Shown here: positions 4,540 through 42,602 of the stretch, piece after piece
Position numbering within the stretch: position 1 is the first letter of the stretch
How the letters are laid out: each line of letters begins with the position of its first letter
NCBI GenBank assembly: GCA_963924565.1
Contig: OZ004613.1
Coordinates: 7,068,001 to 7,132,000 of the forward strand
Direction: 5' to 3'
From: Ascidiella aspersa
Lineage: Eukaryota
Length of the DNA stretch: 64,000 nt
Notes under the pieces: generated by a model
Database searches by the model: none
What the model saw: only the letters and a program-made list of their open reading frames with translations
What the model was told of the DNA's origin: nothing
Position numbers and translations under genes: made by a program

Positions 4540-4640
4540 AGGAACTGACGATGCCAGTATAGCCAAAATGTATATTCCTTCAAAACAATGTCTGATCCTG
4601 GTTTCACTCGGGTTTTTAATTTAGAGTTTTATTATTTCCA
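4540..4640 (+). mobile_element. Hammerhead-bearing repeat (family E), degenerate
   Basis: AGGAA-CTGACGA-T-GCCagtataGCC-AAAA-TGTA-TA-TTCCT. The tail tgtctgatcctggttt recurs at 4976-5060 and on the - strand at ~39885-39970. Confidence 0.6.
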
Positions 4641-6214
4641 TCTGGGGACGGGGTTCAAAGCTAACGAGTACTGTGTGTGCTTGTGGGGAGCATTGCGTCA
4701 GATCTGGAAGGCAAAAAATGCACATAGAAATACTACGGGAAATTCCTAAATTCCTTACATGGAAAAGTGTTTCGGTTTCTTTGAATTCAGATAAAAAAAC
4801 TGTTACTCTGGTGTCATTTCTAATGTTCAATGTTCCCCCGAGAGATATTTTCGAATCTTTAAGAATCTGGGGAATGGCAGGGAGCCGGTGAAATAGGCTT
4901 CGAGCCAGACGCCCGCTTTGTATCACAATGGGCGATACAATCGGCAAATGACGCTATGTATTTTACTTTACTTCTAGGAAATGACGATATTTATTCCTTC
5001 AAACAATTCTCTAATTCTGGTTTTACCCGGGTTTTTAATTTAGAGTTTTATTGTTTCCATCTGTGAAATGGTACGGAGCCGGTCAAATAGGTGAGATTCG
5101 AGCCAGCCGCCACTTTGTATCATAATGGGCGATACGATCGGGCGTGTGACGCGGCGCAATCGGGTCCGCTCGGCACCATGAGAGGGCCTATTGTTCCCAA
5201 GTGGTCCTGACTCACGGCACAAGCCTTCGCGCAGGTATTTACGCCCTCTCTATACGCCGCCGCTGCTGCTGTTGATGCTTGTTGATGCTTGTGGTGGGTT
5301 TTTAATCCTGTTGTGATCGCGCGTCTCGCATCCGAGCTGACGACTTTTGGCGCGCGTCGCCTATCGTTGATTTTACGACGGGCGCTCGTTCAAGAACGAC
5401 TCGTCAAGAGTTGGCCGTTTTTTTCGTGTAATAGAGAACGGTTGACCGAGGACGTTTTTCGTGTTTTTGTAGCGTTTACTTCTTTGCGATTAGGGATTAA
5501 ACATTTAGATAAAAGTAGAAATAAAGCTGGGCAACTAAGAATAGAGATCTGATAAATAGCTCAGTCATTTTTTTCGAGTGAGTGCAGGCACAATTTTAGA
5601 AAAAGCAACAGGTAGCCTATTGTACGAATTGCGTAAAAAGCAGGGGAAATTGGTACAATTTTTTTTCAGTTGTTTATATTCTCCTTATAAGTTTTAACTA
5701 TCGAAGAAGAGGCGATTGGTTGATTGGATATCGCTATCGGATTGAAATGTCAAGTATTGGACATCTCTAGTTGTAACGGCCAAAAGCACAGGAAAACACT
5801 TTCGCAATCACGCCAATATACTATATAATGCATTGCATAAACAAATAACATAAACAACTGAAGGTCGGTGAAGTTTTACATAATTTTTTTGTTCGAGTGG
5901 CCTATTATTGTAAAACGCTTTATAGCAACTCAAGCAGGTTGAGTTGTAGCGGTTGATAAAAAGTTGCACATGGCGACGCCAGCTTTCTAAAACTAAAGCA
6001 ACATGGCGGTCGCCAATTGGAAATATGAAGGCAATTTTTGAGGGCTCACCTTGTCAGGTTTTGTCTTGCAACGAATAGCTAATATAGGGTACAAAAAATT
6101 GTCAATAAACTGTTTACTTCTACGAAAGGGCACTTTCGTATGTCTTCAGGTTATTATCTGCAAAATAAAGTTGTTTGGTGCGATTCGTTACAAAAAATTG
6201 TTTAAGAAAAAGTC

Positions 6215-11272: not shown

Positions 11273-14200
11273 ATGGTCTCGCGGAAAAGCCTAGCCGTCA
11301 TTTTTGCCGTGTGCATTTTTCTGACTCAATGCGAAAAGGCGGAAACGCTCCGTTTAAAGCGAACACCGACGATTCCGCAAGAAACGGGGACCCGACTTAC
11401 AGTAAACAACGCCACACAAACAACGCCGTTAACCGACAACCGGTTCGGACAACGGGCAAAAGGCGGAAACAACGAAACGCGGAACAGAAGGCCGGAATAC
11501 GGAGCCGAAATTGCGGAAGGGATTTCCGCAAATGAAGCGCGAGGAATGAGAAGATCAAATGTGCCGGAGAGCGCGAACGAATACGGCTCTGTGTCGCGAC
11601 TTCAGCGCAGCAAGACCTTTGTAACGTGGCTGGCAGCCTTTGTTCAGGTTTGAGTTTGAATTGCGTTTTTTAAACTTCGAAGTTCTAAGTTAAGGTTTAT
11701 AGCAGGGAGCACATTGTAAGTAGCTCGGTAAAGTTTAATGCAGGGGTAGGCAACCTACAGAGCGCAAGCTGCATCCGGCCCGCCAACTCAAACTGCGCAG
11801 AAGGTCAATCGTTGTATTTTTTTGTGTATTTTAACTGTGTAAATGGATAAAAGTTTTTTTGCACACTAAACTAGATTAGCGATCAAATTTATCGCGTTTC
11901 TCTAAAGTATTTTTGTTATACCTTTCCATTGTGATAATGGATGACGCTGTGTTGACTTGAGCATAAAATCAAAGAAACGCGTGTTTGTCTTTACAAGTAG
12001 GCTAATGAGACCGATTTTAAAATGCAAAAAAAAACTAGCTACGCCCCTTATGTTAAACTAAACGCTTTACAGAAGTATCAGTTAAAATTCATGACGGCTC
12101 GCCGGACCTTTCTAAGTTTGGGTCGGACCCGCGACTAGGAAAAGTTTACCGACCCCTGGTTTAGTGTATAGCAGGCCTACACAACACATAATTTACAAAG
12201 TAACATGATATGAAAATTCATGTTTTATATTTCAGAATATTTTTCCACTTGCCCGCGGCGTACCGGGAAGCGCAGGCAAATCTGATCACGTTTTATTGTT
12301 CAATGCTTTTAGTTAGATTCCGAAAGCGTTTTCTTCTAAATTTCAGGCCGAGATAAGTGGTTCCTAGTGAGGGATCGGTTACAGGATTTTCCGCGGGTGC
12401 ATTGGAAGTTAGGAAAGCTGTTTTAAAAATATTGCTGGAAAAAAGGAGACTTTTTATTTCAACCACAGTTTTAAAATGAGACATTTTTAAGTTGAATACA
12501 GTTTTAAAATGAGGCTTTTTTAATTCGGCTACAGTTTTAAAAGACAGGTAAATAAAAGCGTCCGTTAATTTAACAATGTCTCGTAAATAGGTCAGAGTAA
12601 AAAAAAATCGGAAAAGGCTATTCACCCGTACATCTAAGTAGTTCAAATCAGCATTTAATCACTAACGGGTGCAAGGTAAACTTCCTGAGGTTACTTCCCG
12701 GCTAACGAATCATTTCAAATCGATTTTCTATGCAAACTCCGAAAAATACAATATGATATTACCACCATCCAAATTCAAACGCTAACCCTGGACCGTATTG
12801 GTGCAGGCGTAAAAAAACGATCAGGTCAAATAGCCGTAAAAAATGGGAACCACTGCTTTGCGGCAGATTTAATAAACACGGCGAAAATCACATCAAGGTT
12901 TTTTTGCAACGTTTTAAAACAAATTAAATTAAACAATGTAATACAAAAACGCGTACAATAATCCGCAGACCTTCATCAAAGGCATCAACTGCAAAGCGGC
13001 GAGACGATATTTCACGAGCGAAGCGCGATGCGAAATGGTGAAACGAACACCTTTCCACAACATGAGGTTCTACGGCACACAACGAGAACTCAACGCGGTG
13101 TATTCGGTGGTGAGTTGATAGTGTGATATAATGTAGCAGTAACCTATGCAGCACTTTAAGCTGCGCCAAACTTTGTCCGCAGACACAGATACATTTCGTC
13201 ACCGCTGAAAAAAATGAGAGACCACAACTATTGCTTCAAACCATTAACTGCTAGTCTTCTGCTGTAGTCACAAAAATAAGACTAAAATACCTTAAGTAAA
13301 CACTGTCCCATTTGCCCAAATTGCATACCTATACTAAGATATAGTACTGTATATAGTAAAATACGGCAAACTTTGTCATTCTATACCAGGGGTGCGCAAT
13401 CTGCCAGATGCGGCCAATGCAAATTATGCGGCCTGCGACCTATTTTACAAACAGGTCACTACGCCATTCTTCATATTTTTTGCCTATTTCAACTAGTGAG
13501 AAACAAATTTCTTAAGTTTTGTTCCTGCATCGAGTGCAAGTTGTACTTGGACAAATTTTTAATTGCAAAATACGCTAGTTTTATACCTGATCAACAGTCG
13601 TTGTTGTTATAACAAGATGCGTGAAGTCTACAAAATTAATTTAACAGATCTTTCTGAGTTCAAAAAATGTTCTCTATAAACAGCAAGACTTAAAATGCAC
13701 TTAGAGCGACTCTATAGATACCTCTTCGATAACTGCGCGCGCCTTTGTAAAATTAATTTAATAAATAAAAACAGCAAGACGGGCGTAAAAAAAATTATAT
13801 TTAATTTGCTAATATTCGAGATCAAATAGCCACACAGCTTGGAATACAAAATCAAAGACGTTGGTTGTAACTACATCTGTTAACTTAAAATAACTTTTAA
13901 TCATGTTTTCTTTACTTATTTTGTCAATCTACATCAATCAATTTCTTATAAAATCTCATTTTAGGCCCTACACTTCAAAAAACTGTTATTTTTAAATAAG
14001 TTGGACCTAAAAAGTTAAAAAATATCGCTGCTAAAAATTTGAAAAAAGAAGCAACTGTCACTCACTTTTTCTTATTAAAGGCGATTCCTGAAGGTCGTTT
14101 GCGCGACCTTGCATCTCACCACGCGGTGGCAGTAGTGGATCCCTTCCCCTCTGCCAGCTTCGGTCACTTGGTTCTTGTTTTTTACGTCGACGGAATGACA

Positions 14201-17200
14201 AAGCTGGCCTGCTTCGAACGAAAGGGATTGTACATGGGTAAGGTTAGGCTTAAACATTGGGGCAGCTAAATGAATGTTAAATTTTTACATTGAAACTAGT
14301 TATTTGTCGATATCTCACAATTTCGATTGCGCGTCTTTAGTTTCTTGGCCAACCATATAGTTAACTAGTTACTTGCAGTCAACGAAATAAATAGCTTCGA
14401 GGGGCACGTCACCATTTCAACCTATACATTAACAAAGAATATAGTCCGTACAATTATTTAGTTTTAAAAACTTTTAGGCTGCAATCCCCTTGACAAAATT
14501 TAACAAAACTTGCGCACCCTTTTCTAATATTATGTTTTGAAGCCACAAGGTGCACATCATGCTTGTTACTTTCCGTGTAGAATGATCTACATTATTCTAG
14601 CAGTGCTTACATTAATATAAACATCGCTAAGCGAAATAGGACGCTTAAATGTTAAACTATGAAAATATGCAAAATATTGGTAGGAATATTAAATCCGATA
14701 CAGAAGTCGTTCTTATGTTGAACGATTCGAAAATGATGATACTGGAAACGTTCAAAATGATACCTACTTCTATATCGGCTTTGATATTCTTACTACGTCT
14801 TACTACAATATGAAAAACATGTTTGATATCTGCGGCTTACATTTTTTCATAGTTGTCTGCGATTTTCGTCGGTTATACGTAAGCCTAACACCTTTTTGCT
14901 GACCTAATCGCACGTCAAGTAACCCGAAGTTGTTCGTACAGGCGACAACCTGTGCATCAGCCAAGCGCGAAGGTTCAGATGTCGCAATCACTTCCGCAAC
15001 CAACTGACGCCCGACCAGGTCGCCAAGAAGTGCGAGATCAACTTCATACCGACAGTTTACAACACACAGGAGGAAGGTATGTAAGCTTAGTACGTTTTGT
15101 TGCCATACCGATACCCACAAATTTTGACAAAATCCGATCAGACGCCAAATTTCGTCATATGCTCAAACGTAAAAGATAGATAAAATTAAAACATTGGAAA
15201 TTAAAAAAACACCTGCGTTGCGAAAAATAGCGAATGATGGCAGAAAATTTTGTATTAAATACCACACTAGTATCGGAAGAATGGCGATACTACAACTTGG
15301 TTTCGGGTATATGTATGACCTCCGACCCGATATTATAGGACATTCCTATCTGAAGTGACTATAACAGCCCCTTGTAACCTAACAGTGGCACATAAGGATG
15401 GTGATTTCAAAGCGTCCCTCAGCATGATGTTCGGTAAATCATAAAACACAAGCAACGAAACAGAAATCTACAATTTAATAATGGTTAATCTAATGCTTAC
15501 GTGCACCAACAATGCCGTGTTTTAAGTAATGCAGCCATGCTCAATTGTATTGCGGCTGATCGCAATTGCTATTTTAACAACAAATCACCAATTTACATAC
15601 TTTATTCGGCATTAACTTTCTAAAACAAATTATCTTATAATTATAAATTCAATAAACACCCAATAATAAAAACATTACGTGTACATTACATGTACATTGT
15701 CTGCCTTGGGAATTTATTAGTGTGAAATAAAAACAATTTTCGGAATAATGAAGTGTGAATACAACTGAACTCGAATGTTTTGCAGTGCTTCTTTCGAGCC
15801 TGTAGGCAGTGACCTTACGCAAGTAGCATAACGTGTACCATTTAAAAATAGGAATTTGCCCCACCAGGCAACACAATATTGGTGTAAAAAAAGTTATTAA
15901 ACGACGTCTATTCATCAGGATAAATAATTAAAACGTCGGTTATACCGCCGTTTAGATCAAACGAATTCTATCTATTTACACATTTTGGTTTAATATATTA
16001 TACCAGTTGAATTCTCTAGAAGGTTCATAAACTCAAATTGTGATTTACATATAAAGTAAGCTGTTTGTTCTGTCATAGGCCCAACAAGAGTCCAACAGCT
16101 TGAGTGTATTCCTTACCTTGCCGGTTTTGGGTCATGTCCACTGCAACTTGCTACCGAATCAGAGATCATTGAGAACTGCGAGCTTCAAGCCAACTCAAAG
16201 AGGTGCTACGTTAAGGTAACTTCGCGGACTTGTGACTCTTCTAACGTTTCTAGTAAAACTGTTTATATTTTAACCTCAACCTTAGGCGGCTTTTGACAAC
16301 ACTTGATAAGCTTAAGATGATTTTTAATTTCGGATAATTTTTAAAATGCGATTTAAATAGATAAAATTTTGCACTAAAAACTTTGCTCTACGAAAAAAAT
16401 AATCAAAACAAATTACGGGAAATACCCGTTAAGATAGAAATGGACAATTAATTAGTATAATTTTATCCAAAAAGGGGTTACTAAACATTCCAACAACAGT
16501 CAATTTTTCCGAAAAATAATTTCATTACATTGTGAAAAAATATGTATAGATAAGTACTAAGTACATAAATGAAAATACAAAGAATTTCGTGAAATTTAGA
16601 ATTATTGTTATAACTAGCAAGTATTCAAGTCAAACCCACTAATGATAACAAGACGATTTTAATCAAATTATCAAGGGTTTTTCTGACAAATATGTATTCA
16701 GCGCCGACGTTTCTATCATATAACAGGTAATCTTCTTCAGGGCAATAAACTTGTAACTTTACAGAAGGGTATATATACAGTGAGTCAAACGACCAAAAAC
16801 AAAATAATTAATCTTGTTCTGTTCAGGAGTCAAAAGCCCCAGAAGCGAGGTTGCCGCTGTGTCGTCTCTACGCCCGGTGCGACCACGCCGTGACGTTGTT
16901 CGGAGGGTGGAATGACGTCACTATGTTTACACGTCACGAGGATCACCTACAGCGATTTTACACGATGCTGAAGAGGAACGGATTCAAGAAGCAGAATATA
17001 CAAGTGTTCTATAACGGCAACGGCAATGTTCCACGTGGGTTGAAATTAAATTTTTTTAGACTTGACTTCGAACACAATATAAACCAGTGTCATAAACATG
17101 TCACTTTGAAATGACTTAAGTCCAAGTCAAGTCATTTTAAATAAATACTTAAATAACCCAATATATATTAAAAAAACACTTAATGAAAACCCTTTATTTC

Positions 17201-20200
17201 AACCCAAGCCAATTATCTTAAAGACTAAGTCTAGTCAAGTCATTTTGTCTAAAAGACTTAAGTCAAGTCATTTGAAACCAGTGACAAAGTGCACTTGAGT
17301 CAAGTCATTGACTTAAGTCACTACAACACTGATATAAACTTATATTTTTTTATAATATGACATATGACGCTTAAGAAGATAATTTGCATGGAAATTATTT
17401 ACGTGCGATGTCCAAATACCGTGTTTTGTATGTTGTTAAGATTTCCTCTCGTTGAAACAATGTGACCATGAGAGTTTAGAACTGCCACACTATCGATCAC
17501 TATTTAGGCATGCATAATGTTTTGAAAAAAATTGCAAAATTTAAATAGTTTTTCTTGGCCATTGCGGTTAAGTAAAGGCAATTATTCAGGGATATTTGCT
17601 GTTCCTAAATTGTGACAAAAACTGTTGGCAAAATTAGTTACATACTGCACAAAGGGTATTATTTGCATTGTCTCTAGTCATACAGATTTTTTGTTGGCTA
17701 CTTTCTTGCATAACACTATTGAAACTGATCCTAAAGCCGAGCTTCTTAAAATCGCAGTGGGTGACTCCTACCGCCATGGATTACCAGCAAGCAGCAAGAA
17801 CGCAATCCGTAATCACATCACCACTCTTTGTCGCTCTGCTGTCTGCGTCGACTCGTTCGTGATTTACCTGAACGGACCTACAACGTCGGACGGGTCGATT
17901 CTGCTGTGGGACAATAACGGAGATGGAGAGGTGAGAATGGCAGTGAATTTTTAGAGTGGGTGGTCGGCAGAAATGCACCTTTAGTGTGGAACGTTTTGGA
18001 AGGTTAAATTAGAAGGTAGTCTGGCGCTGGTCTCAAAACCTACCACATCTTCGTCTGGGGGTTTATATTGCTAACATGATTTGGGTTTTGCAGCGAGTTG
18101 ACCATTGGGTTTGGGTAAGTCTCGTATTAGTATTATATTTATTCTCCCATATTTATTTCTTCCGTGTAATTTTTTCGGCGCAGGTCTAGAATTCTACCAC
18201 ATTGTGGTTCGGGGGGTTATATTGGTAACATTCTTTGGGTTAAGGTGCGAGTTAGCGTTTGGTTTGGGTAAGTAAACAAGGGTAATTTGATTCCGACATA
18301 TTTGCAAACGGAAGGCCTTCAGTTCATTCACAACACTAATTACAGCAAAGATTATAAGTGTTTTTTAAATGATCCTTGGGGACCACATGGTGGCCTATTT
18401 ATAGGTTCATGTATATTTCTTATGAAGTTATACTTTTGTTGCTGAGTAGCAATGATGTTTTACCGTTTCAAAAAAATTGTTGTAAACACGTCATTTTAAA
18501 TTGACTTCAATTGAAGTCAGGTCATTTGTAAATGTCCCAGTCAAGTCATTTGTAAAATAACTCAAGTCCAAGTTATGTCCTTTTGCATAAATAAGAAGTC
18601 AAGTACTCGTTATTAGAGCAGAACTTCGACCAAGACAGGAAAGTCTGAAGATTATTTGCCAAAAAGTATTGAGAAAATTAGCGTCGATCTCGGGACGTTC
18701 TATACGTTCCAGGCACCGAATGATGCATCGATTAGAAAGTGTACATACACACAAAGTCACGCAACCCTTAGCGTTATCTTAACTTTCTCCAAGCCTTACT
18801 TACGCAATGGGCCAGCTAACAGCCTACAGGTTGTGTCTGTATATGTTTCCCCAAACAAGATATTCCTGGAATACGTCAGTCGTCAGTGCACGCGCGCTCG
18901 AGACTGACATTTCGTTGTTTAGCTTTAGCGTCCGGTCACGCAGTAAGGCATTTACAGAGGGATACAGGATCTTCAGAAACCAATTAGTACGCAAATATGC
19001 AACTGAAGTTGGGTCTAATCGCGAAAATAAGCGTTTCTTTGGTTTAAATTAGCTTTTTCATAATTTAGGAGACGGGCGCATAGGGAATAAACGAGATTAG
19101 CATATTTCGCAATAAAATGGCATTTGTAGATCAATTTAGCACAAACCGTGTTTTTGTAGAGTGTATAAGTTCACACGCCGCCTTTTTGCTAAAACCTTTG
19201 GCTAATGACGCTTTCGGGTCGTGACCTATAAATCTAGGGAAAGCACATCTACATCATTTTGGAAATAATGTTGCACTGAATATGTGATTTTTGGAAATCA
19301 CCTTGACCTGTACAAGATGAATGTTGACCCCAATTCCTAATCAGTAACAGCAGAAGAGTATTCTGTTTGAAAAAAATATATTGACGATGCCTTTGCTGGC
19401 GAAATATATAATTATATATGTCGTTTAGTATCTATCAATAGTGTCTAACCTGAATAACCAGGCTTAAAAGTTTGTTAACAATATGTTAAGCTTTGGGTAC
19501 AGTGCGAAAAATGAATTCCGTGGTTCTGATAAAATCTTGGACAAAACTGGACAACCACCAGATTGGAAAATACTTAATCAATAGGAAAAACTTTAAATCA
19601 CGTGTGGATGAAACAATAACTACTGTTAGTTAGAATAAAAAAATATTGAGTCCGCGAGAAGTCAAAAAAACATTTGCATAGCCTACACAAAGTAACATCC
19701 TAGATCATTGGTTCTCAAACTTTTTAAAAAACAATACGCAACGGTCCTCTAGCAATGTTTCAAATTGCTCACGGTCCCCTTAAAAATATACACAATTAAA
19801 CACCAACTAACACGTTGTTTTTAATGGTGTCAGTAGGCTTGGTCATACCGTATTTAATATTGTAACGCTAACTAAATCACTTTACTTAATAGAAGTAGTC
19901 ACGAACAGTTTTGAAACAGTGGTCTCACAACCCACAGTGGCAGCACAGCAAGCTGTAAAAACGTAATTCTCATTAGCACAACACAATACTATAAAAATTT
20001 GTTAGGTGCTTTGCGGTCCCAGAAAATTGTCTCGCGGACTCCAAAAGGACTGCGGACCCTAGTTTGAGAACCACTGTCCTAGATCCATATATTGACACGT
20101 ATCCCCGAATGCCCGTCGTGCTAACACGTTGCACGTTACGTGTGGCTCCTGGAATGTAGATTTTTGCGATACGAGGATTGTTTAGGGTGTTGTGGTACAG

Positions 20201-22313
20201 TCGATGATTGCCATCGAGGTCAGATATGGCGAAAGATAACCAAACAGGTTGTAGTTTGTTAAGCGGGAAATTTAGTTTGGCTACGTTATACAACATTCAA
20301 TCACAACGAAAGGTTGGCACGACCTGTTTAATGGAAGACTAAAAGGCTTATCCCCATATTAACCACCAGTGTAGCCATTGTGACGTCCAAGTCAAGTATT
20401 TTTGAATGGTTAACAAGTTAAGTCCCAGTCAAGACATAATTAAAACAAGTCAATTGCAAGTCAAGTCCTTGTCCAAAAATGAAACGTTAAAGTATTAAAA
20501 TTGGCAAGTTCGTCCCATTATGAGCAATAACTCAAGTAAAAATGAAAGAAAAACACAACATATAGCAAGCAAATAGCTCAATGTGCAAAACTTAAGATAA
20601 ATAAGCCAAATTTATAAAATATGCTTAACGAAAACATTTCATTTTCAAGTCATTGGTCCAAAAGGCTTAAGTCAAGTCAAGTCTTTTAAAAACAGTGACT
20701 AAAGTCAATTCACTGTCTTAATTCTTTGCAACACTGCTAACCACGCTTCCTTGTTTATCTAATTTAGCACCAGCCTATGCAAACTAGTTTCTATACAGAG
20801 AGGCCCGCAGACAATTTTCCAGGGGGGCAATACGAATATATACACACAATTTAGCTTAAATATTACACATATAAACAATAATAATAATCGCATTTAAAAT
20901 TCCAGGGGGGGGGGGGGGGGGGCAAGTGATTAAAGAACTTACAAACACTGTTTCTTGTTTAGAAAATACAGCGCTCGCAAAATGCGTAGAATGCGCCTTG
21001 CCTGTCAATCACGACATTCAAGCCCCGCCCTAATTTGCGTTCTAACCCAATTTTCTAAAAAACAAACTTAACATCAATAATATTTTTCCCACAAACTCAG
21101 GCCCAACCGACCGAGGCCTACAGCGTCGACGAGTTCCTTGATGACGTCACAGACTGCGAGGCCAATCACTTGTTTGTCTTCGCCGAGCAGAGCTACGCCG
21201 GAATTATGACGTCACGTATGCGCGCCCGGATCCAGAACCCGGTGTACCCGGCCACAAGGGCCTCGTGGTCCCGCGTTGTGCTGCTCTCTAGTGGCGGAGA
21301 GTTCGAGTACTCGTGGGGCGATGACGTCATTAGGCACTGGACCGGCCTCTCGCCAATGCTGCCCGTGTCATGGGCCTATGACGTAAGAAACTGCTTGGTT
21401 ATATTTTTTAATTTTTGAATTTCAGCATTTTGTGCAGAAGCTGGCTTGTCTCATCGCTTTAACTTAATGTTAAGCTGTTCTCCCGGATTTTACCTTGACT
21501 GTGGTTATTGGGAAAAGTTTATTATCTTTAATATGAATGTAATTTTAAATTATCAATTCATATTAAACTTAAGTATAGTAAAAATTATACATTTCCCGTG
21601 GTTAGTGTTTCATGCTAAAGATAATAAATTAAAACGGCGCTTGTCTAGAATCCGAGCACTTTTTAACAGTAACGAAACGAGCTGTCAAAATTGAAATTAC
21701 AAGGAGGAAATAAATATGGTGGAACAAATATATTAATATTCCTTGACCCACCCAAACCCAAACGCTATCTCATACCCTAATACATATAATATTAGCAGTG
21801 TAAACGCTCGGACGAAAATGCTAGCTTTTTGGACCGAGATGGTTTGGATGAAGTCTGTTATGTTACAATAAGAAGTGTAACCCGATTAACATATGCAAAT
21901 CAGAATGTATGATGATTTTGGTTTGTAAACCAGCGCCGAATTTCTTTCATGATCTGTGATAGGAAACACACAGCACAGAAAAATATTATATCTACTGTAT
22001 TTAAATTAATATACTTAATTTATAAATTAATTTATACAGCGAAAACTATAACTCTTGCGTTGTGTTCTAAAGTAATTTATAGTTTCCTGCGAATTTTCAG
22101 AACATCGGCTACACACACAGCACCACCAATATGCTGCAGAAGCGACGGGCTCAGGAGTACACCTTGTACGGGGCTCCCATCATTTACGGGTTACCCGTAC
22201 TCGCCGAAAATCCGACTGAGTTACGACGCGAGTACATGGGCTGCCAGGATCTACCCGCCGCTGAGTGGATACTCGAGTTCAACTCGGAATTTAATGAAGC
22301 GAGTCCCGAGTAG
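11273..22313 (+). CDS. Secreted protein (~606 aa) with Cys-rich region and C-terminal legumain/peptidase C13-like (clan CD fold) domain; probably catalytically inactive
   Basis: Exons 11273-11647, 12969-13109, 14081-14237, 14942-15076, 16079-16215, 16827-17034, 17758-17930, 21101-21382, 22101-22313. All introns are GT-AG and the phases join into one ORF. Signal peptide MVSRKSLAVIFAVCIFLTQCEKA. The motifs HAVTLFGGWN..RHEDHLQRFYTMLKRNGFKKQNIQVF, DSFVIYLNGP and HLFVFAEQSYAG align by eye to legumain AVLVAGSNGWYNYRH..AYQIIHRNGIPDEQIVVM, DHVFIYFTDHG and MVFYIEACESG. Confidence 0.85.
11741..12158. mobile_element. hAT (Buster/Charlie-like) MITE
   Basis: Termini CAGGGGTAGGCAACC / GTTTACCGACCCCTG; TSD GTTTAATG/GTTTAGTG. 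Confidence 0.8.
12410..12545 (+). repeat. ~30-bp tandem repeat
   Basis: The unit ...acagttttaaaatgagrc.ttttta... is repeated 3-4 times. Confidence 0.6.
17085..17331. mobile_element. hAT-type MITE, GACTT family
   Basis: CAGTGT...ACAACACTG termini with a perfect 8-bp TSD, ATATAAAC. Confidence 0.85.
19706..20076. mobile_element. hAT (Buster/Charlie-like) MITE
   Basis: Termini CATTGGTTCTCAAAC / GTTTGAGAACCACTG; perfect TSD TCCTAGAT. Confidence 0.85.
20367..20736. mobile_element. hAT-type MITE, GACTT family
   Basis: CAGTGTAGC...GCAACACTG termini; TSD TTAACCAC/CTAACCAC. Confidence 0.8.

Positions 22314-24657: not shown

Positions 24658-42602
<17,945 letters not shown>

Follow-up and report, generated by a model that had tools for sequence, protein, structure and literature searches.

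The window considered here, a stretch of 64,000 nucleotides from the tunicate Ascidiella aspersa (assembly GCA_963924565.1, contig OZ004613.1, positions 7,068,001 to 7,132,000), contains on its + strand a gene of nine exons, at 11273-22313 of the window, that encodes a protein of 606 amino acids. We have found that both residues corresponding to the catalytic His and Cys of clan CD peptidases are replaced in this protein, and we present structural predictions suggesting that its C-terminal half has the clan CD (legumain/caspase) fold. An earlier note, made from the sequence, had placed a secreted legumain-fold pseudo-peptidase at 16827..22313, which is a real part of the gene comprising exons 6-9 only and misses its start at 11273; the note was right that the reading frame is intact over nine exons, since all introns are GT-AG and there is no internal stop.

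The exon chain is a prediction from DNA and homology rather than from RNA reads. It is supported by the 57% identity across 487 amino acids between the predicted protein and Ciona LOC100181449, by the fact that this Ciona protein matches exons 2-9 only in the 309-Mb A. aspersa genome (8 of 8 matches), and by the agreement of the ends of exons 6 and 7 with those of another locus, L015. The gene is single-copy in the A. aspersa genome, and in a tree of 24 sequences its product groups among three tunicate orthologues with support of 100/100. Across exons 6 and 7 the gene and L015 differ at 54 codons synonymously and at 26 non-synonymously, in 113 codons, and the gene has been kept under purifying selection. 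The intact frame, the homology, the profile match described below and the codon differences together rule out a pseudogene or chance open frame.

The sequence motifs on which the earlier note relied are present at the positions it gave, FTRHED at amino acid 349, IYLNGPT at 420 and AEQSYAG at 470. We compared a profile of the family with profiles of active clan CD enzymes built from the genome's own legumain and from those 15 of 27 bacterial loci that show both the His-Gly and the Cys motifs. The family profile matches the active enzymes with a probability of 92.6% when legumain is included and of 95.5% for the bacteria alone, while 20 column-shuffled control profiles reach at most 1.5%, so the match is not due to chance; against a single legumain sequence the probability is 0.6%, and comparisons with single legumain exons are uninformative. 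The profile alignment fixes the register: N423-G424-P425-T426 aligns on [AST]-G-H-G and E471-Q472-S473 on D-x-C, or, for the family as a whole, YlNsPa with fyAGHG and DQSYSG with D-x-C-x-sG. The register of the earlier note is right, and the catalytic His has thus become Pro (not Asn) and the catalytic Cys has become Ser.

Pro425 (CCT, 17877-17879) occupies the position of the catalytic His in A. aspersa, as Pro does in 27 of the 27 homologues that we aligned, with Thr426 where Gly follows the His in active enzymes; because every sampled lineage carries Pro, the loss of the catalytic His is old. Ser473 (AGC, 21191-21193) stands at the place of the catalytic Cys, in a column that, apart from one gap, holds Ser in 23 of 26 homologues, Asn in two and Thr in one, so a hydroxyl is not invariant there. 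None of these 26 has the Cys. One metagenome locus (L054) does have a Cys codon at this column (TGC, 2014-2016), yet keeps N-S-P at the His site, and this Cys may represent a reversion or an allele, or result from an error in sequencing. The motif was found in 9 metagenome loci, some of them near-duplicates, and of these 8 likewise have AGC as the Ser codon. A single base separates AGC from TGC, and likewise CCT from CAT, consistent with an active enzyme as ancestor. Metacaspase MCA4 of Trypanosoma brucei, in which Cys is replaced by Ser and the His is kept, has no activity according to the accessible part of PMC3220528, and this makes activity less likely in the A. aspersa protein, where the His is also gone. 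The protein is therefore likely to be without peptidase activity. The site's main unexplained feature is that the Asn, the Gln and the acidic residue around the Ser are nearly invariant.

The earlier note had also proposed a C13/clan CD fold. Structural comparison by VIA-align and Foldseek, carried out on models of two homologues, from Ciona (mean predicted local distance difference test score, pLDDT, of 70.7) and Lymnaea (81.3), predicts a caspase/legumain-like fold. Human legumain (4aw9) matches the Ciona model with Z 19.7 (root-mean-square deviation, rmsd, 2.5; 204 residues aligned) and the Lymnaea model with Z 20.0 (rmsd 2.6; 206 aligned), and the clan CD matches of both models overall have rmsd 2.5-2.7 over 204-208 residues. 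Metacaspase 4 scores Z 19.4 and 20.0 (Ciona and Lymnaea models, respectively), PIGK 17.9 and 18.7 and caspases 14-17, and the first unrelated structures are far lower, at 8.7 and 7.9; the top Foldseek match is legumain (E 2.3e-7). Clan CD is thus borne out by both models. By structure legumain and metacaspase tie, with Z within 1 in both models, so that membership of C13 specifically (as against C14B) is at best likely; the sequence evidence leans towards C13. PF01650 matches 8 of 26 family members at E up to 0.1 (best E 2.1e-4); P0033 scores 17.8 bits and exon 6 scores 13.5 bits (E 0.052), both under the curated cut-off of 22.8 bits. The Atlas features of exon 8 lie closest to bacterial C13 (score 0.95), and the family profile against PDB sequences gives matches, at E 0.12 or weaker, of which 8 of 11 rows are asparaginyl endopeptidases or ligases and 3 are unrelated; a phmmer search of PDB with exon 8 gave no match.

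The earlier note overlooked two conserved features. One is a calcium-loop motif, D-x-[DN]-x-[DN]-G-x5-E, that lies directly after the hairpin following the dead His site and comprises D436, N438, D440, G441 and E447. The pattern occurs at one aligned place in 26 of 28 sequences, the two misses being a truncated record and a record with an insertion; all 27 homologues have D436 and G441, and 26 of the 27 have E447. The pattern corresponds to the Dx[DN]xDG loop, with Asp or Asn at positions 1, 3 and 5, Gly at position 6 and a later acidic ligand, which, in the part of PMC3123361 available, is found mostly in secreted or surface proteins. We infer from this match that the loop binds calcium. The other feature is an N-terminal domain of about 190 amino acids, modelled confidently in Ciona (pLDDT near 90) and including the near-invariant residues D192, P195, G200, H201, F259 and P261, of which His201 is present in 24 of 24 homologues. 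Searches with whole models returned no match that singled out this domain, which was not searched by itself.

Several features suggest that the protein is likely to be secreted. An N-terminal hydrophobic stretch is found in the A. aspersa protein and in the 18 full-length homologues profiled (KD11 1.5-3.4), no later membrane segment is seen (the highest 19-residue hydropathy is 1.51 here, at amino acid 188, and at most 1.63 in the 18 homologues), and many Cys residues are conserved in the family. The remainder of exon 1 after the hydrophobic stretch is weakly conserved and likely disordered, the equivalent Ciona residues 25-108 having pLDDT below 50. At the other end, no Legum_prodom match was found in 26 members, and the structural match in the Ciona model, of 611 residues, extends as far as residue 592 and so leaves no space for an LSAM domain.

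Table 1. Exons of the gene and the putative calcium loop, in coordinates of the window (aa, amino acids)
Feature	Position	Strand	Residues and content
Exon 1	11273..11647	+	aa 1-125; ATG, signal-peptide-like hydrophobic stretch aa 7-17 (KD11 3.34)
Exon 2	12969..13109	+	aa 126-172; conserved Cys-containing N-terminal domain begins
Exon 3	14081..14237	+	aa 173-225; N-terminal domain, D-P-x-P-x-A-x-F-G-H loop (with His201)
Exon 4	14942..15076	+	aa 225-270; N-terminal domain, C-E-I-N-F-x-P motif
Exon 5	16079..16215	+	aa 270-315; Cys-rich linker
Exon 6	16827..17034	+	aa 316-385; first strand and helix of the predicted clan CD domain; R351-H352 (16932-16937)
Exon 7	17758..17930	+	aa 385-442; N423-G424-P425-T426; calcium-loop motif starts at D436 (17910)
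Exon 8	21101..21382	+	aa 443-536; E471-Q472-S473; S513, D516
Exon 9	22101..22313	+	aa 537-606 and stop; last strand of the predicted fold, short conserved G-A-P...G-C-Q tail
Calcium-loop motif (putative)	17910..21115	+	aa 436-447; split by the intron after E442

Introns 6 and 7 are partly filled by a high-copy dispersed repeat of short AAGTC-type units (17105-17300, 18534-18573 and 20384-20720), and another high-copy element lies at about 14745-14808. Upstream of the gene, two similar short stretches (4549-4900 and 4970-5130) suggest a local duplication. Downstream, tail to tail with the gene and about 2.3 kb from it, is a Suppressor of Hairless/CSL gene on the - strand (24661-37672), a call that rests on LAG1-DNAbind, BTD and TIG_SUH matches. 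Upstream of the CSL gene are long open frames at 38423-39235 and 41043-41903 (-), with no Pfam match, that may be a long N-terminal extension of CSL or another gene; the second contains a short tandem peptide repeat.

Homologues were gathered by searching with exon 8 in HMMER, followed by two further searches, and come from the tunicates Clavelina, Ciona and Styela, from Branchiostoma and Diadema, from many molluscs, from Owenia and Lineus, and from Limulus, Caerostris and Artemia. The exon 8 search gave 33 matches, of which P0002, P0017 and P0020 are unrelated repeat proteins, P0026 is without the motif and P0011, P0030 and P0032 were left uninspected. Our alignment of 27 homologues, which leaves out near-duplicates (P0034, P0036, P0037, P0040-P0044, P0049 and P0050) and single-exon fragments, shows 28-50% identity to the A. 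aspersa protein. The names listed are all 'uncharacterized', 'unnamed' or 'hypothetical' except for that of a spider fragment, P0027, whose UniRef label, 'C-type lectin domain-containing', is unsupported by Pfam. In the ESM Atlas there are unnamed clusters of chordate sequences (84 and 52 members) and of arthropod sequences (69 members), at scores of 0.96-0.98, and a metagenome scan found at least 54 further loci, many of them near-duplicates. No cnidarian, sponge or prokaryotic members were among the matches listed by these word-based searches, so the taxonomic range is a lower bound; a word-index search with exon 8 gave no match, and of 20 pattern matches in a scan of genome contigs for a prokaryotic relative, a weak test, none was confirmed. 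We note a locus, L040, in which homologue exons next to a CA-type repeat resemble fish sequence, and which, if verified, would extend the family to vertebrates. The family seems undescribed: no paper on it was found in the literature searched, including for six LOC identifiers, a search whose range did not take in MEROPS, InterPro, subscription journals and supplementary tables, where members may be listed as non-peptidase homologues.

The earlier note had pointed to a retained RH dipeptide of the S1 pocket. In legumain this pocket is formed, according to the part of PMC4357240 that was available, by Arg44, His45, Ser216 and Asp231, and residues aligned with all four are present in the A. aspersa protein: R351 (16932-16934), H352 (16935-16937), S513 and D516. 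The dipeptide is kept in this protein and is not a trait of the family. It occurs in 10 of the 25 homologues that have the region, and in the truncated P0069, but in none of the 3 other full-length tunicates, and the other carriers are all spiralians; in place of RH there is QN in Ciona, FY in Clavelina and RN in Styela and in L015. Among 26 sequences (P0069 and P0027 were dropped for gaps), 10 have RH and Asp together, 14 have neither and 2 have one only. His352 itself may have been either kept or regained.

The reading that we favour, to which we would assign a probability of roughly 0.55, is that the protein is a secreted, disulfide-bonded and calcium-stiffened clan CD protein that holds a partner, uncut, in the former substrate groove or next to it. 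According to this reading the protein would be secreted with its clan CD domain stiffened by a calcium ion, and peptides would not be cut, Pro and Ser having replaced the catalytic pair; the groove would hold a partner, either a protein or a peptide, most likely anchored by its Asn or Asp side chain in A. aspersa and many spiralians, where Asn/Asp-type S1 residues remain. A bolder version, which we regard as doubtful, is that the family is a third, hitherto undescribed animal branch of the legumain/GPI8 group, dead since before the split of protostomes and deuterostomes, whose groove now receives an Asn/Asp peptide outside the cell in a calcium-dependent manner (or works as a His-less Ser catalyst) and whose N-terminal domain is a new fold.

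A number of observations weigh against the reading we favour. Amphioxus, urchins, arthropods and the three further full-length tunicates are among the 14 of 26 sequences that have no S1 set, and binding in the groove through S1 residues therefore cannot be the core function of the family. The mapping of Ser216 and Asp231 crosses a 12-residue gap and relies on a weak single-sequence alignment and on residue spacing. A change of one base in the His352 codon would give the Asn found in Ciona, Styela and L015, and the His may have arisen late. The Fisher p for the joint pattern of RH and Asp (2e-5) overstates it, because about 4 changes on the tree suffice and there are few independent events. The conservation of Asn423, Asp/Glu471, Gln472 and Ser473 exceeds what a dead site requires, which unknown chemistry would also explain. 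Finally, there are zero reads on the exons of the gene in RNA run X3 from the same species, of which 6% was read; this blank result says little, because in the same data the control, the legumain gene, shows six junctions with 4-16 reads each.

Non-catalytic readings taken together seem to us highly probable, and they include one, rather unlikely in our view, in which the groove is vestigial and the clan CD domain is a calcium-stiffened scaffold, contacts being made by the N-terminal domain or the Cys-rich linker. The missing S1 residues of 14 of 26 sequences would fit such a scaffold, as would the many near-invariant residues of an N-terminal domain modelled at pLDDT near 90. However, the rim of the dead site (N423, P425, D/E471, Q472 and G476) matches the N-terminal domain in invariance, and retention or loss of RH tends to go with that of Asp. 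A further reading is a changed chemistry, in which Ser473 would serve as nucleophile or oxyanion donor, aided by Asn423, Gln472 or a His or Lys from another part of the chain, in a hydrolase, ligase or transamidase-like reaction: Ser is present in 23 of 26 homologues, its Asn, Gln and acidic neighbours are near-invariant, and conserved candidates for such a helper are present (His201, 24 of 24; His404, 23 of 27; Lys398, 27 of 27). We consider this improbable, given that Thr, Asn (twice) and, in L054, Cys also occur at the nucleophile column, that the canonical place is without a general base, and that the active bacterial profile commonly has a Lys where Lys398 aligns; MCA4, moreover, is described as inactive with Ser though its His is kept (PMC3220528, accessible part).

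The precedent of MCA4, which by the same portion of PMC3220528 interacts with an active metacaspase, also raises the idea that the protein regulates an active clan CD enzyme, by binding legumain or by competing for its substrates or inhibitors. An active legumain is encoded in the same genome, and the putative S1 equivalents are kept in the A. aspersa protein. Regulation of this kind has a counterpart in c-FLIP, which acts as a regulator of caspase-8. Yet the gene (contig C7) and legumain (contig C1) are not neighbours, the S1 set is lost in half of the family, and legumain is active as a monomer, as stated in the available text of PMC4357240; we think such a role very unlikely.

Two C13 proteins, legumain and PIGK, are usually attributed to animals. 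The family described here would be a further animal clan CD family, spread across protostomes and deuterostomes, without a Pfam family and single-copy in A. aspersa. It offers a testable case of a probable extracellular pseudo-protease whose dead site is defined, for which a calcium loop is predicted and of which a Cys-bearing variant exists in nature, and its orthologues in Ciona, amphioxus and urchin make knockouts and pull-downs practical.

Compared with legumain (C13, PF01650, 4aw9), the A. aspersa protein shares the predicted fold, a likely signal peptide and the putative S1 equivalents. It differs in the replacement of His by Pro and of Cys by Ser, in being without the C-terminal LSAM prodomain and in having 14-17% identity, and the family adds the N-terminal domain of about 190 amino acids, the Cys-rich linker and the calcium-loop insertion. 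The gene is not the genome's own legumain, as a separate intact one lies on contig C1. This canonical legumain (L008, G000:C1:8667774-8671992, - strand) has its His and Cys motifs intact and is spliced in RNA run X3. Like PIGK/GPI8 (C13; 7w72_K; Z 17.9-18.7), the protein probably enters the secretory pathway, and unlike it the protein has no dyad and no C-terminal membrane anchor, PIGK/GPI8 having a C-terminal transmembrane helix. A PF01650 search of the genome listed no PIGK gene, probably because of a sensitivity limit.

The resemblance to metacaspases and orthocaspases (C14B; 6w8r and 8a53) is as close in predicted fold (Z 19.4-20.0) and extends to a Gly or Ser preceding the His place and an Asp two before the Cys place; the bacterial G-H-G/D-x-C profile is the one that aligns with the family at 95.5%. 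In contrast to metacaspases, the protein has no dyad, is likely secreted and disulfide-rich, and is found in animals, in which metacaspases are not known. In one bacterial genome (G178:C1; L066, L083 and L086-L091) we also noticed at least 8 long open frames, of 1384-2661 amino acids, in which a caspase-like His/Cys domain is intact.

Dead clan CD proteins are already known as a kind, in MCA4, bacterial pseudo-orthocaspases and c-FLIP, with which the protein shares, in a comparison made without a sequence tie, an intact (here predicted) fold and a dead dyad. MCA4 shares the change of Cys to Ser (PMC3220528, in the part available), pseudo-orthocaspases have Tyr and Ser in place of His and Cys (PMC6426788, likewise), and the c-FLIP domain 3h13 matches the homologue models at Z 13.4-13.7. 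What sets the protein apart from these pseudo-peptidases is the replacement of His by Pro, the likely signal peptide, and its membership of a bilaterian family with an N-terminal domain and a putative calcium loop of its own.

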